Made by a program: the position numbers and the translations under genes. Below are positions 12,523 through 34,534 of a DNA stretch of 36,215 nt, piece by piece. The DNA comes from Promethearchaeota archaeon. GTDB lineage: Archaea > Asgardarchaeota > Lokiarchaeia > Sigyniarchaeales > SOKP01. The notes below the pieces were generated by a model, which was not told the origin of the DNA, searched no databases, and worked only from the letters and a program-made list of their open reading frames with translations. The stretch spans positions 1-36,215 of the forward strand of contig JAEOTP010000039.1 in NCBI GenBank assembly GCA_016839765.1. Direction: 5' to 3'. Position 1 is the first letter of the stretch. Every line of letters starts with the position of its first letter.

Positions 12523-13125
12523 ATGAGCGAAAATGTAAATAAATATATTAAACGTAAAGTTTACAAAAAAACGAGTTCAAGAATTGCTCAGAAGTTTGTG
12601 GACGCTGGACTTCAAGAAATAAGAGCATGTATTAATTGTGGAACTTGTACTGGTAGTTGTCCTTCTGGAAGACGTACAGCATATCGAACTCGTTCTGCAA
12701 TTCGTCGCGCATTAACAGGTGACGAATCAGTTTTAAAAGATATTGATATTTGGTTATGCTCAACTTGTTATTATTGCTATGAACGCTGTCCGAGAAATAT
12801 TCCTGTTACTGACATGATTATTAAACTTAGAAATATCGCGGTTGAAGAAGGGTATATTTTAGATTCACATTTCGTATTAGCTAATAATATTTTTTATGCT
12901 ACAGGGCATGGCGTCCCTGCAACAGGTGAAAATAATAAAAAGTGGAGGGATTTAAGGGAATCATATGGTTTACCGCCATTACCACCGACAGTTCATTCAT
13001 ATCCAGAAGCCGTTAAGGAGTGTCAAGAATTGATGAAAGCAGTGGGATTTAAAAAATTAATGGATAATGCGGCAAAATTAAAAGAAGAAAGAGCAAAAGC
13101 TGAGAAAAAAGATAAGGAGGAATAA
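12523..13125 (+). CDS. hdrC: Heterodisulfide reductase subunit C
   Basis: CINCGTCTGSCPSGRRTAYRTR and IWLCSTCYYCYERCPR, giving two [4Fe-4S] motifs of methanogen type. Confidence 0.95.
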   Translation: MSENVNKYIKRKVYKKTSSRIAQKFVDAGLQEIRACINCGTCTGSCPSGRRTAYRTRSAIRRALTGDESVLKDIDIWLCSTCYYCYERCPRNIPVTDMIIKLRNIAVEEGYILDSHFVLANNIFYATGHGVPATGENNKKWRDLRESYGLPPLPPTVHSYPEAVKECQELMKAVGFKKLMDNAAKLKEERAKAEKKDKEE

Positions 13126-13126
13126 T

Positions 13127-14077
13127 ATGAGTGAAGATTATAAATGGCATTATGGATTTTTTTTAGGATGTGTTATTCCTAATCGTTATCCTATGATTGA
13201 AGCTTCAATAAGAAGCGTTTTTGATCATCTTGGAGCGGAAATGTTAGATTTACCCGGTGCATCATGTTGTCCTGCTCCAGGTGTATTTAGAGCATTTCAT
13301 ATTCCAACTTGGCTTGTAATTGCTGCAAGAAACATTTCTATTGCCGAGGAAATTGGAGTAAATCCCATTACAGGTTGTAATGGTTGCTATGGGACTCTCA
13401 GGGACGCGTGGTATGAACTTGAGCATGAATATGAGTTAAAAAAAGAAGTTAATGAATATCTTGCTAAAATTGGACGTACATATAAGGGTAATCTCGAACC
13501 CAAACATGTTGTTCAAGCTTTATACCTTGATATGGGATTAGATCATTTAAAAGATTACATTAAATTTACCTTTTCAGATTTAAAAATAGCCGTGCATTAT
13601 GGTTGTCATATTGTAAAACCTAGTGATAAAAGACCGTGGGATGGCGAATATGAAGTTCCAAGATTTCTTGATGAAATTGTTGAATTAACTGGAGCTAAAA
13701 GCGTTGATTATAAAGATAAATATATGTGTTGTGGAGCTGGTGGAGCAGTCAGAACTGCTGTTAAAGAAGTCGCAGCTGATTTTACACGTGAAAAGTTGAT
13801 GAATATTAGAGAAGTAGGAGCGGATATAATAATAAACTGCTGTCCCTTCTGCCATCTTCAATTAGATCTAGGTCAAGTTGAGGTAAACAACTTCTACGCT
13901 GATATAATTGGGGAACCGTTTAATATTCCTGTAATATATATAACTCAACTTTTAGGAGTGGCATTTGGAATGGATCCTAATCTATTAGGTTTGATCAAGA
14001 ATCATGAATTAACAGGTGTATCACCGTTCATATCAATAGATCCTTTCCTAAACATAATAAAAAATCAATTAATTTAA
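13127..14077 (+). CDS. hdrB: Heterodisulfide reductase subunit B
   Basis: FFLGC, SCCPAPG, CNGC, HYGCH, CCGAGG, CPFCHLQLD (two CCG domains). Confidence 0.95.
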   Translation: MSEDYKWHYGFFLGCVIPNRYPMIEASIRSVFDHLGAEMLDLPGASCCPAPGVFRAFHIPTWLVIAARNISIAEEIGVNPITGCNGCYGTLRDAWYELEHEYELKKEVNEYLAKIGRTYKGNLEPKHVVQALYLDMGLDHLKDYIKFTFSDLKIAVHYGCHIVKPSDKRPWDGEYEVPRFLDEIVELTGAKSVDYKDKYMCCGAGGAVRTAVKEVAADFTREKLMNIREVGADIIINCCPFCHLQLDLGQVEVNNFYADIIGEPFNIPVIYITQLLGVAFGMDPNLLGLIKNHELTGVSPFISIDPFLNIIKNQLI

Positions 14078-14092
14078 TGGGTAAGGTAAAAA

Positions 14093-16114
14093 ATGACTGA
14101 AGCTAAAAAAGAATTGGAAAAAGTAAAAAAAGAAATTGTAGTCACTGGTAATGAAAAACCTCAAGTTGGTGTATACGTATGTGATTGTGGTATCAATATA
14201 GCTGGTGTTGTTTCAGTTCCAGATTTAGTAAAATATGCTGAAACATTACCTGATGTAGCTGTTGCTCGTGAATATAAATTCTTTTGTTCCGATACAGGTC
14301 AAAACATAATTAAAGAAGATATCCAGTCAGGTTTAATTAACAGGGTTGTTGTGGCAGCATGTTCTCCAAGAATGCATGAACCTACATTTAGATTAGTTTG
14401 TAAAGAAGCAGGATTGAATCAATTTTTATTTGAGCAAGCAAATATTAGAGAGCACTCTACATGGGTTCATATGAAGGACCCAGAAGGAGCATTTGAGGCT
14501 GCAAAAGATCTCATTAAAATGTCTGTCGCAAAAGCTAGAGAATTAAAGCCTTTAGAGGTTAAAACTGTTAGTATTGAACCTGCTTGTTTAATTATTGGTG
14601 GTGGAATTGCGGGAATGAATTCTGCCTTAGATTTAGCCACAGAAGGGTATAAAGTTTATTTAGTTGAAAGAACACCCACTATCGGGGGCCATATGGCGCA
14701 ATTAGATAAAACATTTCCTACAATGGATTGTAGTGCCTGTATATTAACTCCAAGAATGGTAGATGTAGCGCGGAACGAGAATATCGAGTTATTGACTTAT
14801 TCAGAAGTAGTAGAAGTAACCGGTTATGTGGGAAATTTTGAAGCAACAATCATGAAAAAACCTCATTATGTTGATCAAGAAGCATGTACAGGTTGCGGAG
14901 TATGTGTAGATTATTGTCCCGTGGTAACTGGCAATGAATTTGATCTTGGTTTAGCTACAAGAAAAGCAATATATATTCCATTTCCTCAGGCAGTTCCTGG
15001 AAAATACACAATAGATATGGATAATTGTATTAAATGTGGGATTTGTGCTAGAGAAGATGTTTGTGAACCGGATGCTATTAGGTATGATGAGGAACCAGAA
15101 TATATGAAAGTAAAGGTAGGAACTATAATCATTGCAACTGGCTGGGATTTATATGATCCTACAGGATTAAAACAATATGGCTATGGTAGATATCCTAATG
15201 TTATTGATGGACTTCAAATGGAACGTTTATTAAGTTCTACAGGTCCTTTAGATGGTAAGCCCACACGTCCATCAGATCTTAAAGCGCCCCATAGTATTGC
15301 CTTTCTGCAATGTGTGGGGAGCAGAAATTTTAGAGAAGGGGGTAATCAGTATTGTTCTAGGGTTTGTTGCATGTACGCTACGAAGCAAGCCAGACAATAT
15401 AAAGAGAAACATCCCGACGCTGATGTATATATATTCTATATGGATGTAAGAGCTTTTGGAAAAGGTTATGAAGAATTTTACGAATCAGCAGGCAAAAACT
15501 ATGGAATTAATTATATAAGAGGAAGAATTGCAGAGGTAAGTGAAGGTGAAGATCATAGTATTATTATCAGAGCCGAAGATACATTACTTCAAGAACCAAT
15601 GGAATTAAAAGTCGATATGTTTGTTCTTTCATGTGGTTTAGAGTCTAGAAGTGATGCAGGAGAGGTTGCCTCTTTAGTCAGAGTTCAAAGATCCTCTGAT
15701 GGTTTTTTTATGGAAGCTCATCCTAAATTAAGACCTGTAGATACTTTGACTGAAGGAATTTTCATAGCGGGTGTTGCGCAAGGTCCAAAAGACATTCCTG
15801 ATTCTGTTGCTCAAGCTAAAGGAGCAGCATCAAGCGCCGCGACATTAATGGCTAAAGGAGAAGTTGAAATGGAACCATTTTTTGCAGTAGTTCGTCCAGA
15901 CCGTTGTATTGGATGTGGTATGTGTGTTGAAAATTGTACTTATGGTGCTATAGAACTAATTGATGATAGACATTTTGGTAAAATTGCATCAATTAACCAA
16001 GCATTATGTAAAGGTTGTGGTGCTTGTTCCGGTAACTGTAGATGCTCTGCAATAGATATTTTCGGCTTCACTGGAGAACAAATATTTTCAATCATAATGG
16101 GGGGTGAACTTTAA
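14093..16114 (+). CDS. hdrA: Heterodisulfide reductase subunit A
   Basis: GVYVCDCGINIAG, ACSPRMHE, GGGIAG, LDKTFPTMDCSAC, CVGSR..YCSRVCC, EAHPKLRP and ferredoxin motifs. Confidence 0.97.
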   Translation: MTEAKKELEKVKKEIVVTGNEKPQVGVYVCDCGINIAGVVSVPDLVKYAETLPDVAVAREYKFFCSDTGQNIIKEDIQSGLINRVVVAACSPRMHEPTFRLVCKEAGLNQFLFEQANIREHSTWVHMKDPEGAFEAAKDLIKMSVAKARELKPLEVKTVSIEPACLIIGGGIAGMNSALDLATEGYKVYLVERTPTIGGHMAQLDKTFPTMDCSACILTPRMVDVARNENIELLTYSEVVEVTGYVGNFEATIMKKPHYVDQEACTGCGVCVDYCPVVTGNEFDLGLATRKAIYIPFPQAVPGKYTIDMDNCIKCGICAREDVCEPDAIRYDEEPEYMKVKVGTIIIATGWDLYDPTGLKQYGYGRYPNVIDGLQMERLLSSTGPLDGKPTRPSDLKAPHSIAFLQCVGSRNFREGGNQYCSRVCCMYATKQARQYKEKHPDADVYIFYMDVRAFGKGYEEFYESAGKNYGINYIRGRIAEVSEGEDHSIIIRAEDTLLQEPMELKVDMFVLSCGLESRSDAGEVASLVRVQRSSDGFFMEAHPKLRPVDTLTEGIFIAGVAQGPKDIPDSVAQAKGAASSAATLMAKGEVEMEPFFAVVRPDRCIGCGMCVENCTYGAIELIDDRHFGKIASINQALCKGCGACSGNCRCSAIDIFGFTGEQIFSIIMGGEL

Positions 16115-19546: not shown

Positions 19547-22500
19547 CTAATTAGTTCCAATTTTTGCTTTACTCACTTTACCTGGGATTTTCGATTCTCC
19601 AACCTTTTTGATTATTTCTGTAAATTCTGATATGCGTTCTGAGAATTGTTTCCCCTCACTCGCGGAAATTTGATGGATTTGAATTCTTTCTTCTTCAATT
19701 CCAATCATCTTTAATAATTTCTGAAGGTTCTCCAATCGAAGATATGCATTTTCATTCCCACTTATATAGTGACAATCTCCAAGGTGACACCCTGCTATAA
19801 ATACACCATCCGCTCCATCCAAAAATGCCTTTAAAATATAACTCTTAGACATACCTCCTGAGCACATGACTCTAATAATTCTTATATTTGGAGGATACTG
19901 ATATCTACTTACGCCTGCTAGATCGGCACCGGCGTATGAGCACCAATTACAGAGAAATGCGACTATTCTTGGTTCCCAAACCTTTTCTTCCGATTTAACT
20001 GCTTCAGCAATCATTGGTTTTATCTGATCATTTCCAAAATGACTCATAGATATAGCAGAAACCGGACATTCTGCGAAACAAGTTCCACATCCTTTACAAA
20101 GAGCCTTAATTACGTGAGCTTTCTTTATATCATTATTATATAAACCCATTTGTTTAGTAGTCTCGACTAACTCAATGGCGTTATAGGGGCAAATTTCGGC
20201 ACATTGACCACAACCTATACATTTTTCTTCATTAACATTGGAAGTTACACCCTCAGTCTCTAAAAATTCTTTTGATAATATTGTCATTGCTCTAGCTGCT
20301 GCAGACTTCGCTTGAGCTATACTTTCAATTATATTTGCCGGTGCTCGTGCAGTTCCACATAAAAAGATTCCATCTGTTGCGAAATCAGAAGGTCTCAACT
20401 TAACATGAGCTTCTAAGAAGAAATTATCCTCATTAAGAGGGACTTTAAGTAATTTAGCTAACTCACTATTTCCCTCAGGAGCTACAATTCCTGCACTTAA
20501 AACAACCAAATCCGTGTTAAGTTTAATTTCTCCTATATCTGACTTGTTTAGTATAAGTTGTAAGATATTATCTTTTGCAATAACTTTGGGTGGTTGTGTT
20601 TCATCAAATCTAATAAAGAGAATGCCCTTAGCTCTAGCGAGATTATAGTATTTCTCCTTAAAACCATAAGTCCTAATATCACGAAATAAAATGGTAATAT
20701 TAATATCTGGGTTAATCTCTTTTGCTTTTAACGCATTCTTTATTGCTTCTGCACAGCACATCCTACTGCAATAAGGATTTTCTTCGTTTCTAGAACCTAT
20801 ACATTGGATCATAACAATTGATTTCAGTTCCTTTATTTTTTTTTCCTCCATAAAAAGAATTTCTTCGAGTTTTGATTGAGTTATAATTCTCTCATCGTAA
20901 TTAAATAAGAACTCGTTATCTTTAGGAGTATATTCCTCTGTTCCTGTCGCTACAATAATAATTCCATGATTCAAATTCTCTGTTTCATTTTCTCTTTCAG
21001 AAATTATTTCTGTGGTAAAATTACCTAGATAGCCTGTTACGGAATTAATGTTAGCTTCGAGAAAAACATTAATGAATTCATGATTATTGACTCTTTCTAC
21101 TAAATTACTAATTAATTTTTGGACATCATTGTTTTCTAAAGTTTGAAAAATTTTATTTGAGAAACCACCCAACCTATTGCTTTTTTCAACTAAATATGTT
21201 GTATACCCCTGATCTGCTAAATTTAAAGCTGCTGTCATTCCAGCTACACCGCCTCCAATAACCAATCCTTTATTAATTACTTCTACTCTTTGCTCTTGTA
21301 AAGGAACTAAATTTCTTGCTTTTGCGACAGACATTCTAACCAAATCTTTAGCTTTCTGTGTAGCTTCTTCTGGTTCATGCATATGTACCCAGGAACATTG
21401 ATCCCTAATATTTGCTAAATCAAAAAGATATTTATTTAAACCTGCTTCTCTTATTGTTGCTTGGAATAACGGTTCATGCGTTCTAGGCGTGCAAGAAGCA
21501 ACGATTACTCTATTTAGGTTATGTTTCTTTATCTTTTCTTTAATAATCGTTTGGGTATCAGCTGAGCAAGTATATAAGTTTCTTTCAGCATATACTACAT
21601 CTGGTAATTTGCTTGCATATTCAACTACTTCAGGAACATCAACAACACCTCCGATATTAATTCCGCAATGGCAAACAAAAACTCCAATTCGAGGTGGTTC
21701 TCCACTAACATCGATTTCATCATAATATTTCTTTTCAGGAACTAAAGTATTTCTAACATCAGATAGAAGAACATTTACGGCTCCTGCGGTTGCACTAGCT
21801 TCAATAACAGTTTCTGGAATATCCTTGGGTTCTTTAAACGTTCCACATACATAAACACCTGGTCTTGAAGTCTCAATTGGATTAAAATTAGTTGTTTTAC
21901 AGAAGTCATATTCATTTAATCCAACATTTAATTTTTTTGCTAATGCTATAGCGTTTGGATTAGGTTGTAATCCTACAGATAAAATAACCATGTTAAAAAT
22001 TTCTTCAACAATTTCTCCTTCATCAGTTTCGTACCTAATTTTCAAGTCATTGGATTCGGCAATTTCTTTAATACTAGAAATTCTACTTCTAATATACCTT
22101 ATGCCATAATCACTTTTAGCTCGTTCAATGTATTTATCAAAATCTTTTCCGTATGCTCTTATATCCATGCTAAAAATGGTAAGTTCAAGAGTGTTTAAAT
22201 GTTCTTTAGCTATAACAGCTTCTTTTGTAGTATACATACAACACACTGAAGAGCAGTATTCATGATTTATTTTTTTATCTCGAGAACCAACGCATTGCAA
22301 AAATGCTATTTTTTTCGGATGTGTGTTATCCGAAGGACGAATTACTTCTCCCTTAAATGGGCCAGAAGCATTGAGAATACGTTCGAAACCTATACTTGAT
22401 ATAACATTTGGATATTCACCATATCCATAAATATTTCCTATTTTTGGTTCATATTCATCAGATCCAAGGGCTAATATTACAGCCCCAATATTGATAGAGA

Positions 22501-24493
22501 TTATTTCATCAGCTAAATTATGATCAATTGCGTTTGCTTGGCAAGTTCTCACACATTCGAAGCACTCGCAGCAAGATCCACAATTAAGACAGCGGTTTGC
22601 TTCTTTAATAGAAGAATCTTCATCCATAGTGCTAGCAACTTCATTAAAATTATATATCCGTTCTTCGGGTAAACATATTGAGAACTCACCTCTATCTTGA
22701 CACGCTATATTATCAATGTCTTGAATATCAGCAATAGTAACTACATCCTCTACTTTATAATCAGAGATGGTTTCTTTTAAATCGGAAATTTCTTCTCCTT
22801 TTAGATATTTCTCCATCACTATAGCTGCTTTATTTCCTGTCGCTATTGCTTCTATAGCAGAGGCAGCACCAGTGATGATCTCTCCTCCAGCGAAGACACC
22901 AGGGATATTAGTTTCAAAAGTTGTTTGGTCTGCTTCAATATAACCCCATTTATTAATATTTAATTTCTTCTGAGAAGCAGATTCTATTAATGAACAATCT
23001 GATTCTTGTCCTACTGAAATTATTAAAGTATCGATCTTCATCTTGAATTCAGAACCTTCAATTGCGATAGGTCTTCGCCTTCCAGATTCATCAGGTTTAC
23101 CAAGTTTCATTTGCACGCATTCAATTTCAGAAATCTTAACTCCCTTATCACTGGCATCTTTAGTGGGTACGGTTAAAAATTTAAATTCAATGCCCTCTTC
23201 TCTTGCTCTTTTTATTTCTTCCCTTGAAGCAGGCATTTCTTGTTCAGATCGTCTATAAATAATTATTACTTTTTTTGCACCTAATCTTATGGATGAGCGA
23301 GCAACATCCATTGCAACATCTCCTCCGCCAACTACTCCTATAATTTTATCTTTAAGATTAGGTACATTTCTTGATAAATTTAATTCTCTTAGAAAATCAA
23401 CACCATATAATACATCTTCAATATCTTCACATTGAAAATCCATTTTACGACTATTATGAAGGCCTATAGCTATAAAAATAGCTTTATAACCTTGGTTTTT
23501 TAAATCTTCTAAGGTTAAATCAGAACCTACAGGTGTATTGGTTTTTATTTCAACGCCCAGTTTCTTAATATATTCAATATCTCTTTCTAAGATTTCTGGT
23601 GGCAATCTATAATCAGGGATTCCCAGTCTTAGCATTCCACCCGCAACAGGTTCTTTTTCAAAAATTGTCACGGAATACCCACGTTTTGCAAGGTGATAAG
23701 CAACAGTAAGTCCCGTTGGACCTGAACCAATAATAGCAACTTTTTCTTCCTTTTTATCTTCTAAGAATGTGATTTCTTCTTCAAGATTATCCATAACATA
23801 ATCTGCTACAAATCTTTTTAAGCCACAAATATTAATAGGATCATCTATTTCCGCTCTATTACATTCTAATTCACAAAAATGAGGACAAATTCGTCCTATA
23901 ACAGAGGGAAGGGGACATCTCTCTCTAATTAAGTTCAAGGCTTCTTGATAACTTTTTTTGGAGATTAAAGCAACATATCCTTGGGCATTTACATGAGCAG
24001 GACAAGCATCCACGCAGGGAGGAGTTCCTCGTTTTTCTATTTGTACTTTAAATGGTACCGCCTGAGGGAACTGAAGATATATCGCTTTTCTATTATTCAA
24101 TTTCTGATTAAATTCATCAGGAATTTGAACAGGGCACTCTTGAATGCAATCCCCACAACCCGTACATTTATCTTCATAGATATATCTTGTTCTTTTATTA
24201 ATTGTAGCATTAAAATTACCTGCCTTACCTTCCAGATTTATGATATCTGCGTATGTAATCAATTCAATATTTGGATGTCTATCTACAGCAACGAGTTTTG
24301 GGGCTAAAATACACATAGAACAGTCATTTGTTGGGAAAGTTTTATCTAATTGAGCCATAACTCCTCCAATGGATGGTTCCTTCTCAACAAGATAAACCTT
24401 GAGACCAGCATCTGCTAAATCTAATGCTGCTTGACAACCCCCTATTCCTGCTCCAACAATCATTACAGCCCCAACTTTATTCTTTTCGCTCAA
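19547..24493 (-). CDS. HdrL/BamE-type multidomain flavoprotein (HdrA with GltD-like insert, second HdrA, C-terminal MvhD)
   Basis: First HdrA: GAGIGG, FPTNDCSMC. GltD module: PCVDACP, GRICPHFCELEC, GSGPTG, GGGDVAMD, YRRS. Two C(V/I)GSR..YCS..CC motifs and GVFVCHCGINIGG. MvhD: AFLCNWCSYAGAD. TTG start after GGAGG. Confidence 0.92.
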   Translation of the reverse strand: MSEKNKVGAVMIVGAGIGGCQAALDLADAGLKVYLVEKEPSIGGVMAQLDKTFPTNDCSMCILAPKLVAVDRHPNIELITYADIINLEGKAGNFNATINKRTRYIYEDKCTGCGDCIQECPVQIPDEFNQKLNNRKAIYLQFPQAVPFKVQIEKRGTPPCVDACPAHVNAQGYVALISKKSYQEALNLIRERCPLPSVIGRICPHFCELECNRAEIDDPINICGLKRFVADYVMDNLEEEITFLEDKKEEKVAIIGSGPTGLTVAYHLAKRGYSVTIFEKEPVAGGMLRLGIPDYRLPPEILERDIEYIKKLGVEIKTNTPVGSDLTLEDLKNQGYKAIFIAIGLHNSRKMDFQCEDIEDVLYGVDFLRELNLSRNVPNLKDKIIGVVGGGDVAMDVARSSIRLGAKKVIIIYRRSEQEMPASREEIKRAREEGIEFKFLTVPTKDASDKGVKISEIECVQMKLGKPDESGRRRPIAIEGSEFKMKIDTLIISVGQESDCSLIESASQKKLNINKWGYIEADQTTFETNIPGVFAGGEIITGAASAIEAIATGNKAAIVMEKYLKGEEISDLKETISDYKVEDVVTIADIQDIDNIACQDRGEFSICLPEERIYNFNEVASTMDEDSSIKEANRCLNCGSCCECFECVRTCQANAIDHNLADEIISINIGAVILALGSDEYEPKIGNIYGYGEYPNVISSIGFERILNASGPFKGEVIRPSDNTHPKKIAFLQCVGSRDKKINHEYCSSVCCMYTTKEAVIAKEHLNTLELTIFSMDIRAYGKDFDKYIERAKSDYGIRYIRSRISSIKEIAESNDLKIRYETDEGEIVEEIFNMVILSVGLQPNPNAIALAKKLNVGLNEYDFCKTTNFNPIETSRPGVYVCGTFKEPKDIPETVIEASATAGAVNVLLSDVRNTLVPEKKYYDEIDVSGEPPRIGVFVCHCGINIGGVVDVPEVVEYASKLPDVVYAERNLYTCSADTQTIIKEKIKKHNLNRVIVASCTPRTHEPLFQATIREAGLNKYLFDLANIRDQCSWVHMHEPEEATQKAKDLVRMSVAKARNLVPLQEQRVEVINKGLVIGGGVAGMTAALNLADQGYTTYLVEKSNRLGGFSNKIFQTLENNDVQKLISNLVERVNNHEFINVFLEANINSVTGYLGNFTTEIISERENETENLNHGIIIVATGTEEYTPKDNEFLFNYDERIITQSKLEEILFMEEKKIKELKSIVMIQCIGSRNEENPYCSRMCCAEAIKNALKAKEINPDINITILFRDIRTYGFKEKYYNLARAKGILFIRFDETQPPKVIAKDNILQLILNKSDIGEIKLNTDLVVLSAGIVAPEGNSELAKLLKVPLNEDNFFLEAHVKLRPSDFATDGIFLCGTARAPANIIESIAQAKSAAARAMTILSKEFLETEGVTSNVNEEKCIGCGQCAEICPYNAIELVETTKQMGLYNNDIKKAHVIKALCKGCGTCFAECPVSAISMSHFGNDQIKPMIAEAVKSEEKVWEPRIVAFLCNWCSYAGADLAGVSRYQYPPNIRIIRVMCSGGMSKSYILKAFLDGADGVFIAGCHLGDCHYISGNENAYLRLENLQKLLKMIGIEEERIQIHQISASEGKQFSERISEFTEIIKKVGESKIPGKVSKAKIGTN

Positions 24494-24577
24494 TTATATT
24501 CCTCCATTATTGAAAATTTCTTATATTCATACATTTTAAAAAAGATTATATATCATTTTTATTACACCTTGTCGTTC

Positions 24578-25786
24578 CTAAACAAGGAAAAGTAGTTCTC
24601 CAATAAAGTTTGCCAAATCTTTAACTTTAATCTTATTTTTTAAATTTTTGTGTTCCTCATCTAAAGAGGGTTCATTAAGATAACAATCGAAATGGGTTAG
24701 GCACTTCGGACAAGGCACAATTAAATATTCTGCTCCTGTTTCTATTGCTTCATTTATACGATTTTGTCTAAAAGTACGAGTTGATTCATTACATCCCATA
24801 AAAGCCGAAACTCCACAACAATTCGCGTCATCTCTAATATTTTCCATTTCAATTAATTCAACTCCCGGAATTTTCTTAAGTAATTCCCTCGGAGCATCAT
24901 ATAATTTTCCTCCCATACGCCCTAATCGACATGCATCGTGATATGTAACTTTAATTTTAGTTTCTTGGGGAAATCTAACATTTTCAAGGATTTTTTCCTT
25001 TAGAAAAAACTCGGAGAAATGCATAATCTTAAAATTGAAATCTTTTATGACTTTAGGATAATCAAATTTCCATATTCTATATCCTTCAGCACATCCTAAG
25101 ATAATTGTTTTAACACCCGCGTCTCTGTAAAGTTTAACATTATATTCGGCAAGTTTTTTAAACGTATTATTATCCCCTTTACCCCATAAAACATCATGCC
25201 CACAACACTTTTCATTTAATACGACTGGTACTATATTTGCCTCGTTTAATAAACCAATAATAGTTTTTGGTATATTTATATAATTGATATCTGATTTATA
25301 AAAAATAGTGTCCATAATAGGTAAACAACCAATAAAAAATGCAATTTCACCAGAATCTGTTGTTTTTAAAGAAGAATTTTCTAAAAATTCTAATTTATTT
25401 GGATGCAATTTACCATCTGACATAATTTTTGAGATGAGCGGAAATATTTCATCATGGGTCTCACAATGAATGATTTTGTCTATTTGATTTTGATTATGGA
25501 TAGCGATTTTTCTCAATTCTAATATTAATTCTGGAAATCTAACACCAACCTTTTCTTGTGTCATGGGACAATAATTTGAACAAAGACCACAAGTAAGACA
25601 ATCCCATATATTATGTTTCTCTAAAACTTCATTTATTGGTGAAAAAAGTAAATCTACAATTAATTTTTGGGGATAGAAAACATCTATATGAGAAAGTGGA
25701 CATACATTAACACAGCGATTACAATTATAGCAATAATTAGCCATATCATTTATCTTTTTAATTATATCCCCTGAAATGTTGTTCAC
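24578..25786 (-). CDS. HdrD/BamD-like Fe-S oxidoreductase (HdrC-type ferredoxin plus two CCG domains)
   Basis: CYNCNRCVNVCP, CLTCGLCSNYCP, FIGC, EKCCG, YHDACRLGR, CCG, PCPKC. Confidence 0.92.
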   Translation of the reverse strand: MNNISGDIIKKINDMANYCYNCNRCVNVCPLSHIDVFYPQKLIVDLLFSPINEVLEKHNIWDCLTCGLCSNYCPMTQEKVGVRFPELILELRKIAIHNQNQIDKIIHCETHDEIFPLISKIMSDGKLHPNKLEFLENSSLKTTDSGEIAFFIGCLPIMDTIFYKSDINYINIPKTIIGLLNEANIVPVVLNEKCCGHDVLWGKGDNNTFKKLAEYNVKLYRDAGVKTIILGCAEGYRIWKFDYPKVIKDFNFKIMHFSEFFLKEKILENVRFPQETKIKVTYHDACRLGRMGGKLYDAPRELLKKIPGVELIEMENIRDDANCCGVSAFMGCNESTRTFRQNRINEAIETGAEYLIVPCPKCLTHFDCYLNEPSLDEEHKNLKNKIKVKDLANFIGELLFLV

Positions 25787-26002: not shown

Positions 26003-27253
26003 TTACTTCTTCTTTGTTCTTTTATTTTTCTTCTCAATCAATTCTTTTAATTCATCAAGAACTGCTGTCCTCGCCTTTCTAGCCTCCTTGCGTGAAACTA
26101 TTTTTGATGAACTGCTAGTTTTTTGAGAAGTTAATGGATTAGGTGAAGAATATTCTGGAGAGGGCATTGAAGAAGTTAATCCAGTAGTTTTTAAATCTTC
26201 ACCCTCAATTAGTCTAATTCTATTATTTAATTCATTATATTGATCCATTACAACTTCTGATAATCGAATTATTCCATTCAAAGTTGATTCTAAAATTGAT
26301 GCCATTCCTTCTAGTTTATAATCTGATAAGGTAGCAGTTTTTTCCATAGTTTCTTTAAGATATCGTGAAAACTTCGGTTCTTTTGCTAGCAATGAATAGA
26401 TAGAACTTAAATAGATCTCATAATCAAATTTTTTTCTATTTTTGAAAATGCTCTTAATTAAATCTTTTACAACTTCTATATTAAGTAATACTTCTGGATA
26501 ATCTTTTATGTCAGGATCATATTTATGTATAAAAACCAATATGTAAGGTTTTTCTTCAAGTTTTTCGATGTTCTCAATAATTTTCTCGAAATATTTAATA
26601 CTTTCATCAAATTTTTCTGGATCTTGAAGATCAATAACATAAATTATCAAATCGACTTTTAAAAAATATTTCTGAGGATCTTGAAGATAAATTTTTCTAT
26701 ATTCTTGTTGACCACCAAAATCCCATATTATTAATACTAAATCAGGAGTAATAATTTCCTGACGTTCAACTCCTTTTGTTGGATTTAACTTAGCTAAATC
26801 TTTTATTCCAATTTGGCCACCAAATTTCTTTAGTATTGTTGTCTTGCCAGCATTAGCTAACCCAACGACGATAACTTTTTGCTCTTTTTTTAGGTATGAG
26901 ATTGATTCTTCTTTTATTTTATAAATAACCTTACTTATAGTCACTGCTTTTTTTACTTTATCTTCGATTTCTAAATCCGTTTGCAGTATATGCTCAATTT
27001 TTTTCCTAGTTTTATTATCCTTATACAAAATTTCGAAAGGTTTTTCAGGATCCAAAGAAGTAAATTGGCCTATGCTATTAATTTTAAATAACCTACTTAT
27101 TAAATCTACATCAGCATCGCTTAAAAAGTTAAAATTAGAAATAGGAAAAGTTATAACATCTTCAATTGAATCTAATTTATCGAAATTTATTACTTTGGTT
27201 TTATCTAAAAACTTAGAAATTAACTTAATTTTTTCACTCTGCCCTTTTGGCAT
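26003..27253 (-). CDS. Arf/Rag-like small GTPase with N- and C-terminal extensions
   Basis: G1 GLANAGKT, G2 PTKG, G3 WDFGGQ, G4 HKYD, G5 SSI. Confidence 0.92.
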   Translation of the reverse strand: MPKGQSEKIKLISKFLDKTKVINFDKLDSIEDVITFPISNFNFLSDADVDLISRLFKINSIGQFTSLDPEKPFEILYKDNKTRKKIEHILQTDLEIEDKVKKAVTISKVIYKIKEESISYLKKEQKVIVVGLANAGKTTILKKFGGQIGIKDLAKLNPTKGVERQEIITPDLVLIIWDFGGQQEYRKIYLQDPQKYFLKVDLIIYVIDLQDPEKFDESIKYFEKIIENIEKLEEKPYILVFIHKYDPDIKDYPEVLLNIEVVKDLIKSIFKNRKKFDYEIYLSSIYSLLAKEPKFSRYLKETMEKTATLSDYKLEGMASILESTLNGIIRLSEVVMDQYNELNNRIRLIEGEDLKTTGLTSSMPSPEYSSPNPLTSQKTSSSSKIVSRKEARKARTAVLDELKELIEKKNKRTKKK

Positions 27254-27675: not shown

Positions 27676-29751
27676 TTATTTTTCCCAATTAGAGTCTAGA
27701 TATTCAAGAATCTTATCAATTTCATGGCTTGGAGGTTTGCACGTTTTATCGATACAGACATATGCAGTAGCTTTATTATCTTTATCATCAAAGAACTGGA
27801 CAAAATTCGAAAATTTGTCGATATCTGGATTTTCTTGTTCCATTTTTCTTAGTAAAAGTACTTTATTTGGCAAATATTCATTTTCAACTGCTTCTAACAT
27901 ATTTAATGTATCTTTTGAATTTGAATTTCCTGCTATGACTAATGAATAAGTAGGGCCAACAGCAAAATCTGCAGCAACCATAAATTGTGTATATGCTAGT
28001 GGAGATGCTTCTAACTTCTCTGAAAAGACTCTGCTTAATATGTCTGCTTTCTCTTCTAATATATGATCTCCTGTAATATAACTTAGACGTAATAAATTTA
28101 ACATAGAAACTGAATTTCCTGATGGTATAGCTCCATCATATATTTCTTTTTGACGAGTTAAGAGTTCTTCATTAGATTCAGATGTAAAATAGAAACCGCC
28201 TATATGATCATCCCAAAAATGTTTTAATAGAAGTTCATTTAATTCTAATGCAATTTCTAAATACTTATTATTAAATGTTGCTTCAAACATTTCAAGTAAG
28301 CCCCAGATAAAAAAAGCATAATCCGTAAGAAAGCCTTCAATTTCAGCATTTCCCTCCCTGTATCGATGCAATAATATTCCATCTTCCTTTTTTAAATTAT
28401 TTATTATAAAATGAGTAGCGTTTTGCGCAATTTTAAGGTATTTTGGCTCTGAAAAAGCTTTTGCTCCTTTTACTAAAGCAGCAATCATTAATCCATTCCA
28501 ATCGGTTAATATTTTATCATCCTTATGGGGGTGTATTCTTTTCTCACGATATTTAAACAACTCTTGACGAATATTATCAAGCTTAAGATGCTGTTCTTCT
28601 TGTTCGATGTCTTGGATTTGATTTAAGTATAAAATATTTTTACCTGTTTTCCTTCCAGTTGCCTCTTCTAAATAATTGCCGGACTCGGTGATATTATATA
28701 TATTCATAATTAGCTCTACTTCTTTTTGTTCAAGAACTTTTTCAAGTTCGGCCCTTGACCAAACATAAAATTTTCCTTCTTCTCCTTCACTATCCGCATC
28801 CTCAGCAGAATAAAAACCACCTTTGGGAGAGACCATATCACGTATTATATATTCGAAAATTTCTTCGGCTGTTTTTTTATAAATTTTTTTTCTTGTTGCT
28901 TGAAATGCTTCAATATAGGCTATAGCAATTAGAGCTTGATCATATAGCATTTTTTCGAAATGTGGAACAAACCAATTTCTATCTGTAGAATATCTGTGAA
29001 TTCCAAAACCAATATGATCATAGATTCCTCCTTTTCTTATCTCTTGTAAAGTTTTTTCAACCATTTCTAATGCGTGTTGCTCTCCAGTGCGTTTCCAATA
29101 ACGTAGTAAAAACATTAAGTTATGGGGTGTGGGAAATTTAGGTCTATCACTAAATCCTCCTTTTTTAGAATCAAATTGTGATGAAAGTTGATTATATGTT
29201 TTCTTTAAAATTTTCTCATTAAATTTATCTCCAGGAGATTCTTGACTTAAATTTTGAAGAGAAAACGTGATTTTTTCAGCTGATTCTAATAACTCATCCT
29301 TATTATTAATCCATAGAGATTTAACTCTTTTAATTAAGTCTATAAGACCAATTCTTCCAAATTTTGACTCTTTAGGGAAATATGTACCTGCAAAAAAGGG
29401 TTTCTTGTCTGGTGTTAATAGAATTGTTAAGGGCCAACCTCCTGAACCTGTCATCATTTGACATACGGTCATATAGATTTTATCTATATCTGGACGCTCT
29501 TCTCTGTCAACCTTGATCGAAATGAATGTTTCGTTCATTAGATCGGCCACATCCTGGCTTTCAAAGCTTTCATGTGCCATAACATGGCACCAATGGCATG
29601 TTGAGTATCCTATTGATAAAAATATTGGTTTTTTTTCTTTTTTTGCTTTTTGAAAAGCCTCTTCTCCCCAAGGATACCAGTCTACTGGATTATTAACATG
29701 TTGAAGTAAATAGGGACTTTTTTCATTTATTAATTTATTCGATTTAATCAA
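27676..29751 (-). CDS. YyaL / SSP411 (SPATA20, DUF255) thioredoxin-domain protein
   Basis: [68 protein letters not shown]. Confidence 0.95.
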
Positions 29752-29896
29752 TTAATCCTTCACCTTGCTAAATAAACAAGAAAATGCATAAATATCAAGA
29801 TAATGCTTATAATTCATTAACTCTTGATTTAAAGAGATTTATTCTGAAAATAAATCTTAAAAAATTTTTAATAAGTTAGAATTTAAACTTAAAAAT

Positions 29897-30451
29897 CTAT
29901 TTATGAGTATCAATTGAAATAAATTCATCTATTTTTTTTCTTTCTGGTCTCTGATGTTCTATGCTTTTTTGCTTATCTAAAAGCAAATTGTTCAACTCTT
30001 TAGAATGTTTCCCAATAATTATTAATGTAATGAGCCTCATCTCTTCTGGAACTCCCAATACTCTTTTTACCGCTTCCTCATTAAATCCTGCAATTGGATG
30101 GGCAACTAAACCTAATTCAGTAGCTCTAAGTATAATAAATCCTGTTGCAATACCAGTATCAAAAAGATAATAATTTCTCTCTCTTATAATGCAATCTAAA
30201 TTTTTATCACTGTAAACTGCTATGATTAGTGAACTTAATTCAACCCACTTGTTTGTTTTTGTTAAAGTGCCATGAATAGATTTTAGCATTTCTTTATCTC
30301 TTACAAAAATGTATCTCCATGGCTGGTTATTAAAACAAGAGGGTGCTAATTGAGCTGATTTTGCTAATTCAGTTATGATCTCATCTGATATTTCTACAGA
30401 TTCAAGAGATCTATAAGCTCTCCTTAAATTAATAGCCTCTTTTACATTCAT
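29897..30451 (-). CDS. Nitroreductase family protein
   Basis: RRAYR, APSCFNNQPW, ATELGL..HPIAGF. Confidence 0.93.
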   Translation of the reverse strand: MNVKEAINLRRAYRSLESVEISDEIITELAKSAQLAPSCFNNQPWRYIFVRDKEMLKSIHGTLTKTNKWVELSSLIIAVYSDKNLDCIIRERNYYLFDTGIATGFIILRATELGLVAHPIAGFNEEAVKRVLGVPEEMRLITLIIIGKHSKELNNLLLDKQKSIEHQRPERKKIDEFISIDTHK

Positions 30452-30520
30452 TTTTCCTACAATAACTTTTATTATATATGCATAAAAAAATTGGAATTTA
30501 AAAAATATTATAATTAAAAT

Positions 30521-31012
30521 TTAAGCTGTAGCTAATAATCCTTCCAAGATATTTTTTACCTCTTCAGGATGACCTTTAACACTAACTTTTGGCCAAGTGT
30601 GTGCGATTTTACCTTCAGGATCTATTAAAAATGTGCTTCTAATTACGCCCACATACGTTTTTCCTCTGAATTTTTTTAAACCCCAAGCTCCATACTTTTT
30701 AAGAATATCTTTATTTTCATCACTGAGTAATGTTACTTTCAGATTTTTATTTGCAATAAAATTAGCATGAGATTTTGGGCTATCAGGGCTAATTCCTATT
30801 ACTTCTGCATCAAGCTCTTGTAATTCAGGCAAAATATTTGTGAAACCTATAGCTTCGGTTGTGCATCCTGGAGTATTGTCTTTAGGATAGAAGTATATTA
30901 TGCGGTATTTACCTTCAAAATCTTTCAGACACACTTTGTTATTTTCTTTGTCTGGAAGACAAAATTCAGGAGCTAAATCACCAATTTTCAATTCTACTTT
31001 TTTATCTGCCAT
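30521..31012 (-). CDS. bcp: Peroxiredoxin, Bcp/PrxQ family
   Basis: YFYPKDNTPGCTTEA, GISPD, RSTFLIDPEG. Confidence 0.95.
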   Translation of the reverse strand: MADKKVELKIGDLAPEFCLPDKENNKVCLKDFEGKYRIIYFYPKDNTPGCTTEAIGFTNILPELQELDAEVIGISPDSPKSHANFIANKNLKVTLLSDENKDILKKYGAWGLKKFRGKTYVGVIRSTFLIDPEGKIAHTWPKVSVKGHPEEVKNILEGLLATA

Positions 31013-31902: not shown

Positions 31903-33021
31903 TTAGCTTTCTAATTTTTTCTTTATCACACAATATACTTCCCTTCTCTCACCAATTCCAAAACAAGCATTGCAATTAGTACATAGTGAGGGGGAGAGAT
32001 CGCCGCTTTTCCATCGATCAGCTAAATCAGGTTCGTATATAAAAGGTCTACTCAATGATATAAAATCTGCAATTTTTTCTTCTAATAAATTATCTGCTGA
32101 TATAGGGTTTCTTATACCGCCCATAAGAATCAATGGACAATCTTTCATTATTGGCTTGAGCGCTTTAGCGTTTGGTAAATAGTAAGTTCCATCATCAGGT
32201 GAACTAAAATTTACGCTTGGAAATGATTTATTATTGGTTATCCTTAAACTTGTACGCCCAGAGGTGGGTTCAATAGCATCAAAACCTATTTCTACTAAAC
32301 GTTTAGCGATATCTACTCCCTCTTCTAAATCTAGACCCTTTCCCTTCCCTAAAAAATCTTGAGTAATTAGTTTAATTGTTATTGGAAATGCTTTTCCTAA
32401 ATTATCCCTGATCTGATTGTAAATATCAATAACAATTTTTAATCGGTTAAGAGTAGAACCCCCATATTCATCATTTCGTCTATTTGTAAATGGAGAAATA
32501 AAGTCACTCAATAAGTAAGCATGTCCTGCGTGCAATTGTATCATGTCATAACCACACTCATAAGCTCTGAAACCTGCCTCAGCAAATTTCCTTGTTATTT
32601 CTTTAATTTCTTCATTTTTCAATTCTCGACAAATTTTTTTTGTTAGGGGATCTCTAATTGGTGATGGACCAACGGTTTCTAATTTACGACTTATGGCATT
32701 ATTACCTGTATGCCCTATTTGAGCAGCCACCTTAACATCTGAATATTCGTGAATAGAATTTACTAATTTTTTTTGTCCAGGTATATACGAATCATCATAA
32801 ATTCTTGTCATGCGAGTGGTTTGAGCTCCTATTGGATCCACGGCAATATATCCAGTTATTATTAATCCGATACCTCCCTTTGCTAATTCATCATAGAATT
32901 CGATAAGCGAATCAGTTACATAACCATCCTCAGTTGCTCTTGATTCCCAAGTAGCTGAACGAACAAGCCGATTTTTAATATTTACTTCACCAATTTTACC
33001 TGGACTAAAAAGATATTTCAA
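31903..33021 (-). CDS. NADH:flavin oxidoreductase (Old Yellow Enzyme family)
   Basis: KNRLVRSAT, GLIITG, QIGHTG, QLHAGHAYLLSDFISPFTNRRNDEYGGS, LSRPFIYEPDL, and a C-terminal C..CNAC..C. Confidence 0.95.
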   Translation of the reverse strand: MKYLFSPGKIGEVNIKNRLVRSATWESRATEDGYVTDSLIEFYDELAKGGIGLIITGYIAVDPIGAQTTRMTRIYDDSYIPGQKKLVNSIHEYSDVKVAAQIGHTGNNAISRKLETVGPSPIRDPLTKKICRELKNEEIKEITRKFAEAGFRAYECGYDMIQLHAGHAYLLSDFISPFTNRRNDEYGGSTLNRLKIVIDIYNQIRDNLGKAFPITIKLITQDFLGKGKGLDLEEGVDIAKRLVEIGFDAIEPTSGRTSLRITNNKSFPSVNFSSPDDGTYYLPNAKALKPIMKDCPLILMGGIRNPISADNLLEEKIADFISLSRPFIYEPDLADRWKSGDLSPSLCTNCNACFGIGERREVYCVIKKKLES

Positions 33022-33046: not shown

Positions 33047-34534
33047 TTATGGATCATTTCTAAATGGATGTCGTGCACTTTCTGCGTTCTCGATACCATC
33101 ATCTACAGAGGGTAAACCTTCCATTGCTTTTCGAATCGCATTGCGAGTTGCTTTATAATTATTAATAAATATTCTTTTTCTTGCGCTAGCACTTGGATGC
33201 ACAAACACATTTACGATTATCACAATATCATCTGCTAATTCTTTAGGAAGAATTCCATCTTCAACACATTGCATTACTGCCTTCGCTATTGCTGCTTGAG
33301 CAGGTCCATATGTTAAACTGGCATGCCGAAGTGATATTGGACGAACTGTAGGAATCATAATTGTAGGTGGTTTTACTTGCATATTAGGTTCAAGTATGAC
33401 TTGAAGTCCTTCCCGTCCTTCTTCTGGATTTGTTAAAGCTTGAGCATATGCATTTCCCACAGGACCATCTTTCCTACCAATTAGAAGATCAATATGTGCA
33501 AGTTCAACACGATTACCTACAAGCGATTCCCCTACTTTTAAATCAAAATCTGTGATTTTTTCTGGTGTAATTCCAACAGCATAGAATCGGCTTGTAAGTG
33601 GCTTTTCTCCAAATTCAAACTTTAATTCTGTCTTTTGAATTAAACCTAACTTTTCAAGCTCAACTCGTAACTCATCTTTTATTTCATAAGAAAGCGTATC
33701 ACCTAAAACAATTGGTTGTCGGGTTTTACCTACTGGAACTTTCATCATATTTAAACAAGATTTAACGCCTAGTGCTCCTGAATTTATTAAAAGTCTTGCT
33801 AATTTTTGAACTCGCTTTTGAAGTATCTGTGCTTCTTCTAAACGATTATTTTTTACATGTTCATATATTTCTAGCCAAATTTTAGGGAATACATTTGCAG
33901 AACCTAGAATGCATCCAGCGGCACCTCCCGCTAAGGCACCCAAGACATTCTCATCCCATCCAATCATGACTGAAATTTTATCACTAACTTTTTCTAATAA
34001 GGCAGAAAAATATTTATAATCTCCACTAGAATCTTTTATAGCTACAATATTTTCGATATCTACCAGATCTTCAACCACTGTCCATGGTAGCTCTACTCCA
34101 GTACAGACTGGAATATTATATAGCACAATAGGAATTTCTGTTTTTTCTGCTATTGTAAAATAGTGATCGTAAAGACCTTTAGCTTTAGGTTTTAAATAAT
34201 AAGGAGTAACAATTAATACAGCATCCGCTCCAATATCTGTTGCTGCTTTAGTTGCATCGACTACTAATTTAGTGCCAGTTTCTCCTGTACCTGCAATAAC
34301 AGGAACCCTGCCATTAGTTTCATCTACAACGATCTCTATTACTTTTAATCTTTCTTCAAAAGTCATATTAACAAATTCTCCGGTTGTTCCAGAAGGCACT
34401 AAACCTGTCACCCCTTGTTCAATTAGATGATTAACTAAATTCCTCAACATATCCTCATTAATTGACTCATCTTTATTGAAAGGTGTAACCATAGCTGGCA
34501 TAACTCCAGTTGGACGAAAATCAAACTTTCCCAT
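33047..34534 (-). CDS. fae: Fusion of a DapA/DHDPS-family class I aldolase and formaldehyde-activating enzyme
   Basis: N-domain: VTPF, GTTGE, PYY, LYNIP, IKDSSG. C-domain (about 33047-33544): VGESLVG..ELAHIDLLIG..GPVG, VKP.T, GPAQAAIAKAV..GILP, NNYKAT..AI.KAM, HPF. Confidence 0.92.
   Translation of the reverse strand: MGKFDFRPTGVMPAMVTPFNKDESINEDMLRNLVNHLIEQGVTGLVPSGTTGEFVNMTFEERLKVIEIVVDETNGRVPVIAGTGETGTKLVVDATKAATDIGADAVLIVTPYYLKPKAKGLYDHYFTIAEKTEIPIVLYNIPVCTGVELPWTVVEDLVDIENIVAIKDSSGDYKYFSALLEKVSDKISVMIGWDENVLGALAGGAAGCILGSANVFPKIWLEIYEHVKNNRLEEAQILQKRVQKLARLLINSGALGVKSCLNMMKVPVGKTRQPIVLGDTLSYEIKDELRVELEKLGLIQKTELKFEFGEKPLTSRFYAVGITPEKITDFDLKVGESLVGNRVELAHIDLLIGRKDGPVGNAYAQALTNPEEGREGLQVILEPNMQVKPPTIMIPTVRPISLRHASLTYGPAQAAIAKAVMQCVEDGILPKELADDIVIIVNVFVHPSASARKRIFINNYKATRNAIRKAMEGLPSVDDGIENAESARHPFRNDP

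Follow-up and report, generated by a model that had tools for sequence, protein, structure and literature searches.

The window analysed here is the whole 36,215-nucleotide stretch of contig JAEOTP010000039.1 (assembly GCA_016839765.1), from a Promethearchaeota archaeon of the Lokiarchaeia. On the reverse strand it carries a gene that joins a DapA-like class I aldolase domain to a formaldehyde-activating enzyme (Fae) domain, flanked by an unannotated gene (gene X) and a flavin oxidoreductase gene (Table 1). Both profile matches exceed their cut-offs within one frame, which upholds the original prediction of a continuous aldolase-Fae reading frame. The Pfam DHDPS match has an E-value of 8.7e-77 and the Pfam Fae match 4.9e-56 (model positions 1–158 of 159). 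The NCBIfam profile dapA (TIGR00674) scores 247 bits against a cut-off of 206, and fae (TIGR03126) scores 188 bits against a cut-off of 118 (model 2–160 of 160). The motifs GTTGE, LYNIPVCTG, KDSSG and AHIDL are all found as they had been described. The AlphaFold model contains two folded domains (mean pLDDT 88), and superposition of its aldolase half with DHDPS structures gives a deviation of about 1.5 A.

Table 1. Features of the aldolase-Fae locus (window coordinates).
Feature	Coordinates	Strand	Remarks
DapA-like aldolase-Fae fusion gene	33047..34534	(-)	495 aa, one uninterrupted ORF
Class I (Schiff-base) aldolase domain	33656..34513	(-)	residues 8-293
Fae domain	33062..33535	(-)	residues 334-491
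Gene X, unannotated TIM-barrel protein, 428 aa	34556..35842	(-)	same strand, 21 bp upstream of the fusion
Old-yellow-enzyme-type flavin oxidoreductase	31903..33021	(-)	Pfam Oxidored_FMN; 25 bp downstream of the fusion

The fusion is a real, old and conserved gene. Homologues with 72–98% identity are present at 80 loci from other genomes, mostly labelled Promethearchaeota or Promethearchaeia (Lokiarchaeia), and the fusion is present at 20 of 20 distant Asgard loci (44–54% identity). This conservation across many genomes rules out an artefact or a one-off gene. Full-length fusions are also found in the Asgard families f2, f9, f11, f14, f15, f18, f20, f23 and f29 and at two bacterial metagenome loci. 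The Fae domain went undetected in 61 genomes from a single bacterial phylum, a result that is counted as uninformative. A contig labelled 'Candidatus Nanopelagicaceae bacterium' (L052) carries the fusion at 86% identity in the Lokiarchaeia gene order and is probably a mislabelled archaeal bin. The closest relatives of the fusion are named 4-hydroxy-tetrahydrodipicolinate synthase in the databases, because the fusion exceeds the TIGR00674 cut-off. For the fusion, the name DapA is a misannotation.

In the aldolase half, residues T50, T51, Y113, Y139 and K167 (Schiff-base Lys, catalytic Tyr, relay Tyr and Thr-Thr loop) are present in 121 of 121 close homologues. Arg138 of DHDPS binds aspartate semialdehyde (ASA). 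Its position is occupied by Cys144 in all 121 close homologues and by Cys, Val, Leu, Thr or Ala in distant members. The close homologues share a signature of their own, consisting of W193-D194-E195, S212 and R247, and the GWDE motif is one that we take to resemble polyol-binding aldolases such as NAL. The subfamily profiles all score below their cut-offs (NAL 189 of 281 bits, KDG aldolase 113 of 390, HpaI 189 of 397 and KdgD 114 of 374). The top PDB matches are DHDPS, and identity to DapA reaches up to 39%. The fusion thus shares its fold and its pyruvate-activating residues with DapA (EC 4.3.3.7) but differs in the missing ASA-binding Arg, in the GWDE, LxSAN and R247 signatures, in the absence of a dap context and in the added Fae domain.

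The genome also contains a separate, canonical dapA (YNVPSRTG) in an operon with dapB on contig C40, adjoined by lysA- and dapF-like genes. Together with the Cys at the DHDPS Arg position, this gives good support to the earlier proposal that the fusion is not the lysine DapA. The aldolase half of the fusion is 32% identical to the genome's own DapA. A small tree, weakly supported at its deep nodes, places the genome's DapA apart from the fusions, grouped on a long branch with a bacterial DapA-like protein.

In the Fae half, His22, Asp24 and Gln88 correspond to H347, D349 and Q413, which all 121 close homologues keep; single-copy fusions also retain the HPF arm at the C-terminus. In the alignment with Fae of M. 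extorquens, NKVT is replaced by PTVR, such that Lys71 becomes Thr396 and Thr73 becomes Arg398. Thr396 is fixed in all 121 close homologues, the Thr73 position varies (R/K398), and Lys is kept at the Lys71 position only in members of family f29. Four new residues (R454, N458, N459 and R468) are invariant in the Fae domain of the fusion. Fae condenses formaldehyde with H4MPT, and Lys71 and Thr73 are presumably substrate-binding positions. Because both are replaced, this domain may have changed in its activity or in its specificity for the pterin. The description of this domain as complete therefore stands for its length and for the His of AHIDL but not for these two positions.

The host genome encodes Ftr, Mtd and Mch above the profile cut-offs, so methylene-H4MPT has a downstream route. 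It also encodes a canonical Fae-Hps (NCBIfam NF009833). Like archaeal Fae-Hps, the fusion joins a Fae domain to an aldolase that is predicted to handle formaldehyde, and would likewise link a carbon-carbon reaction to H4MPT. Unlike Fae-Hps, its partner is a class I barrel of the DHDPS family, the hexulose-6-phosphate synthase domain is absent, the order is reversed with Fae at the C-terminus, and Lys71 of Fae is replaced. NF009833 matches the fusion over the Fae part only (152 bits, cut-off 274), and DHDPS and Fae are the only domains found.

Tandem aldolase-Fae paralogues occur in three Asgard families and in bacteria (L101, L102, L104, L105, L137 and L139). In these pairs, in archaea and bacteria alike, the long copy keeps the His, the Asp and the C-terminal arm and loses GPxQ, while the short copy shows the reverse. 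The aldolase site is intact in both copies. This pattern suggests that one inter-subunit Fae site is split over two genes, and such a site would still be under selection.

Gene X is present at 78 of 81 fusion loci, and the three exceptions are cut by contig ends. Among genomes of the host family, which are related and hence not independent, 43 contain both X and the fusion, two contain the fusion only (both at contig edges), three contain X only and 21 contain neither. The protein has no match in Pfam or NCBIfam, and sequence searches of an atlas and the PDB returned nothing. Its predicted fold is a TIM barrel (pLDDT 94). Fold searches returned generic barrels only, none standing out, with the U32 protein Mk0906 tied among many (Z 11.1). 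In other Asgard families, a 315-aa U32-like gene takes the position of X beside the fusion. This short partner matches Pfam U32 weakly and matches X in a profile comparison (probability 92%, E 5.8e-7). On this profile match, X appears to be a remote U32-like relative. In the U32 members UbiU and UbiV, conserved cysteines hold a 4Fe-4S cluster. Neither partner family has Cys at any position that is invariant or nearly so.

The short U32-like relatives adjoin acid-sugar dehydratases, lactonases and sugar dehydrogenases. One adjoins an aldehyde dehydrogenase that is closest to alpha-ketoglutaric semialdehyde dehydrogenase, and a broken copy precedes dmpFG. Enzymes in such positions usually hydrate or dehydrate a 2-oxo acid at C4. 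Lactate-utilisation genes and DhaKL, which are also among the neighbours, fit an aldolase instead. The neighbours are thus compatible with a dehydratase or an aldolase, and the chemistry of X is not narrowed by this context. The 315-aa family annotated as 'U32 peptidase', which lacks conserved cysteines and is found in bacterial clusters for acid-sugar catabolism (L110, L112, L237 and L239–L243), is probably a misannotated 2-keto-3-deoxy-acid dehydratase or aldolase. An Enterobacter plasmid (L111:8901-20909) carries a U32-like gene in what looks like a biosynthetic cluster, together with genes for a phosphotransferase, an aminotransferase and two redox enzymes that contain iron.

The predicted complex of X and the fusion has a score of 0.00, which counts neither way. 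In one metatranscriptome, three short contigs fall on X and the fusion, too few for statements on expression or co-transcription. At the 16 bacterial X loci searched for riboswitches, the operon showed none, and a scan for promoters and terminators gave a result at chance level.

Where the fusion is absent, X has other neighbours. At 48 of the bacterial metagenome X loci, a PanB-like gene is found no more than 1 kb from X; at two, X is followed by a tandem aldolase-Fae pair, and no locus has both. Of the remaining loci, 22 are too short and nine contain neither. Recurrent neighbours at bacterial X loci are folD, fhs and fdhD. The X-linked PanB-like gene exceeds the panB cut-off (294 against 208 bits). 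Compared with ordinary PanB, it has three fixed changes (V to L, I/V to L and V to I, each in 37 of 37 sequences), on strands that, by comparison with E. coli PanB, presumably line the keto-acid pocket. An amino-acid dehydrogenase of the ELFV family adjoins the PanB-like gene and X in five bacterial loci. In the host family, this dehydrogenase is present in 20 of 20 X-positive and 8 of 21 X-negative genomes, strictly by genus; given this genus-bound pattern, its co-occurrence with X is a hint only.

In the Asgard families f7 and f24, Fae matches are absent (0 of 31 and 0 of 22 genomes) and X is common (24 of 31 and 20 of 22). In all 13 loci fetched, one of which belongs to a third family, f26, a class I/II aminotransferase comes after X. 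In nine of the 13, homoserine dehydrogenase (Hom) and aldehyde:ferredoxin oxidoreductase (AOR) come next. Aspartate-semialdehyde dehydrogenase (Asd) was not found in 19 of 20 f7 and f24 genomes, including a single-contig one. Hom is thus left without its usual substrate source, which favours homoserine oxidation. The simplest reading of Hom and AOR in these families is the conversion of homoserine to aspartate semialdehyde and then to aspartate, and the X-aminotransferase-Hom-AOR operon (L244–L253 and L261–L263) is a candidate for this oxidation route. In some of these loci a PatB-type C-S lyase is next. A similar Hom lies beside an NAD-type aldehyde dehydrogenase in another genome, one without X. 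In two Fae-less genomes of the host's order, a stand-alone and very divergent 348-aa gene of the DHDPS family precedes X (L264:6778-7824 and L265:6085-7131).

[quoted passage not shown] HOB is chosen because it is at once the keto acid of homoserine, the product of pyruvate hydroxymethylation and the aldol of pyruvate and formaldehyde. Its identity as this aldol and as the keto acid of homoserine is described in the literature (PMC8879981, PMC7918591).

In the preferred reading, which is given a probability of about 0.6, the fusion would interconvert HOB plus a pterin with pyruvate plus methylene-pterin, as an analogue of PanB that channels formaldehyde. The domain anatomy, the conservation, the DapA paralogy and the gene linkages are observed, and the substrate, the channelling, the reaction of X and the direction are inferred. 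The carrier would be a tetrahydropterin, H4MPT in the host. The aldolase domain would break or make the C3-C4 bond of HOB through a Schiff base on Lys167, and the Fae domain would condense the formaldehyde with the pterin or release it. The net reaction would be a PanB-like hydroxymethyl transfer built from unrelated parts. Trapping of formaldehyde would pull HOB cleavage forward. X would act in the same pathway and most likely form HOB from a 4-substituted 2-oxobutanoate. If X works by eliminating a substituent at C4 and adding water, HOB would, among proteinogenic amino acids, most obviously derive from methionine by way of its keto acid; as the substrate of X this keto acid is the best single guess, at about one chance in three.

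The original prediction had proposed the interconversion of HOB with pyruvate and formaldehyde, coupled to H4MPT. The alternative neighbours of X and the Ftr, Mtd and Mch of the host speak for this proposal, which is still inference, and the substitutions at Lys71 and Thr73 of Fae speak against it. Three further points weigh against HOB: the genome already contains a canonical Fae-Hps and a canonical panB, the GWDE likeness to NAL-type aldolases could mean a larger aldehyde, and the sugar-acid clusters of the short U32-like relatives fit a dehydratase or an aldolase.

The proposed net reaction resembles that of PanB (EC 2.1.2.11), in which a 2-oxo acid and methylene-pterin are interconverted with a hydroxymethyl-2-oxo acid, and a PanB-like paralogue replaces the fusion beside X in bacteria. 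Unlike PanB, the fusion has an unrelated sequence, with a Schiff base and a separate Fae site rather than one metal-dependent site, its carrier is probably H4MPT instead of THF, and its 2-oxo acid pyruvate instead of ketoisovalerate. The PanB family profile PF02548 has no match on the fusion, and the claim is one of PanB-like action and not of membership. The fusion was also considered as a stand-in for PanB of the CoA pathway. This was rejected, as an ordinary panB is present in the host genome (contig C25) and in 239 of 301 Asgard genomes searched. In an experimental study, PanB of P. putida partly rescued a homoserine auxotroph as an HOB aldolase and DapA of E. coli did not (bioRxiv 10.1101/2025.02.17.638773).

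The same chemistry could also run biosynthetically, from pyruvate and methylene-H4MPT through HOB to homoserine, in place of the aspartate route. This is possible but fairly unlikely. Across the host family, presence of the fusion is anti-correlated with presence of Hom (29 genomes with the fusion only, 16 with both, 19 with Hom only and five with neither; Fisher p 0.0009, with kin genomes that are not independent). In other fusion-bearing families, Hom is found in 3 of 77 (f9), 0 of 19 (f14), 0 of 3 (f15), 0 of 3 (f23) and 0 of 10 (f29) genomes. A ThrC-like protein with a C-terminal extension is present in the host and lies near X in family f9, and ThrC-like genes are retained in f7 and f24 genomes. 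AOR can run reductively on acids when given low-potential ferredoxin. However, Hom in the host family sits in an ACT-hom-thrC(-thrH) operon, and the whole operon is lost with it; operon-type ThrC is kept in 3 of 29 fusion-only genomes. Replacement of Hom by the fusion in an otherwise intact threonine pathway is weakened accordingly and holds only weakly.

Searches of the host genome found no Hom, ThrH, ThrB, MetX or operon-type ThrC. The host thus has no recognisable use for homoserine, apart from the ThrC-like protein, which is just under the cut-off. This protein does not track the module (15 of 20 genomes with X and 11 of 21 without) and was rejected as a module partner. Ask and Asd are present in the host, so Hom alone would suffice to make homoserine. 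Within the HOB reading, breakdown is slightly favoured, at odds of roughly three to two over synthesis. On a separate contig (C82; L212:550-2616), an ECF S-component-like gene lies beside the ThrC-like enzyme with the C-terminal extension, and in family f9 the same pair also stands beside X.

The parallel with the synthetic homoserine cycle that had been drawn for this locus is consequently weaker where it concerns an assimilation route, given the homoserine and threonine genes missing from the genome. The HOB aldolases of that cycle (RhmA/YfaU and GarL) resemble the proposal in that they interconvert pyruvate and formaldehyde with HOB, which is then transaminated to homoserine. Theirs are promiscuous activities on free formaldehyde in engineered hosts (PMC8879981, bioRxiv 10.1101/2025.02.17.638773), and HOB is described as non-native in that work (PMC8879981). 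Unlike these aldolases, the fusion is predicted to be a natural enzyme dedicated to this reaction and coupled to a pterin carrier.

It is distinctly unlikely that the Fae domain has become a scaffold or a regulatory ligand-binding domain and that the aldolase cleaves another 4-hydroxy-2-oxo acid, such as 4-hydroxy-2-oxoglutarate or a 2-keto-3-deoxy sugar acid, in a reaction free of formaldehyde. The fixed K71T change, the variable T73 position and the new invariant residues R454, N458, N459 and R468 are consistent with this, as are the sugar-acid clusters of the partner's relatives and the one Fae-less genome group that pairs X with a stand-alone divergent gene of the DHDPS family. Single-copy fusions nevertheless keep H347, D349, Q413 and the HPF arm, the complementary retention of motifs in the tandem pairs suggests one shared site under selection, and the replacement of the fusion by a PanB-like enzyme at other loci speaks for a reaction with a C1 carrier.

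A PanB-like hydroxymethyl transfer on a different 2-oxo acid, for example between ketoisovalerate and ketopantoate or between 2-oxobutanoate and 4-hydroxy-3-methyl-2-oxobutanoate, is improbable. It would agree with the bacterial counterpart of the fusion, which scores above the panB cut-off. Against it stand the ordinary panB of the host and of most Asgard genomes searched, the aminotransferase-Hom-AOR alternative, which fits unbranched HOB only, and the usual donor of DHDPS-family enzymes, which is pyruvate. Least probable by far is a second dihydrodipicolinate synthase for lysine with an appended Fae domain: the TIGR00674 score, the best PDB matches and the database names agree with it, but Arg138 is missing in every homologue examined, no dap gene is among the conserved neighbours at 81 loci, the genome already has its canonical dapA-dapB operon and the small tree, with poorly supported deep nodes, places the genome's DapA apart from the fusions.

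If HOB is the substrate, X and its three interchangeable neighbours may form a natural HOB pathway that is widespread in anaerobic sediment archaea and bacteria. As a whole this is tentative, at somewhat less than even odds. In such a pathway, an amino acid, possibly methionine with loss of methanethiol, would be converted to HOB by a new barrel family. HOB would then be split by the fusion to yield pyruvate and methylene-H4MPT, split by the PanB paralogue to yield pyruvate and methylene-THF, or oxidised via homoserine to aspartate. In the literature that could be searched, no natural HOB pathway is described, and the proposed reaction has so far been described in engineered microbes only. The same search, with most subscription papers outside its coverage, returned no account of the aldolase-Fae architecture. 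The parts of the fusion are known individually.

Such a pathway would make HOB a natural node at which amino-acid carbon meets one-carbon metabolism on H4MPT and THF, both in Asgard archaea and in bacteria of sediments. Two large barrel families without names and a subgroup of PanB would gain a pathway. A widespread DapA misannotation would also be corrected, one that affects how metabolism is reconstructed for the prokaryotes most closely related to eukaryotes. In the reverse direction, the fusion would provide a natural step of C1-to-C4 assimilation that needs no ATP, and for engineered C1 assimilation it would offer a dedicated HOB aldolase that channels formaldehyde.

The window also holds other genes. 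The Old-yellow-enzyme-type gene is beside the fusion in 7 of 81 loci and is probably not a core member of the module. At about 55 of 81 Lokiarchaeia loci, the fusion is followed by peroxiredoxin, nitroreductase and DUF255 genes (window 27676-31012), which were not seen beside it in distant families; this block looks like local synteny. A 416-aa small GTPase (window 26003-27253) has its best Pfam matches to Gtr1/RagA and Arf and carries an N-terminal extension, as is typical of Asgard archaea. A 1648-aa HdrA-like flavoprotein (window 19547-25786) is fused to an MvhD/FlpD domain and adjoins a CCG/Fe-S protein. Further Hdr-like genes lie at 12523-16114, and an AOR gene at 1033-2889.

Elsewhere in the genome, a 675-aa protein (contig C22; L003:61-2088) has an N-terminal domain of degenerate DHDPS-like type, and its C-terminal part is kinase-like by eye. 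On contig C96 (L268:1489-4157), a PLP enzyme of Cys/Met metabolism, which scores below all specific cut-offs, directly follows a gene that by eye resembles the MttB-family methyltransferases.
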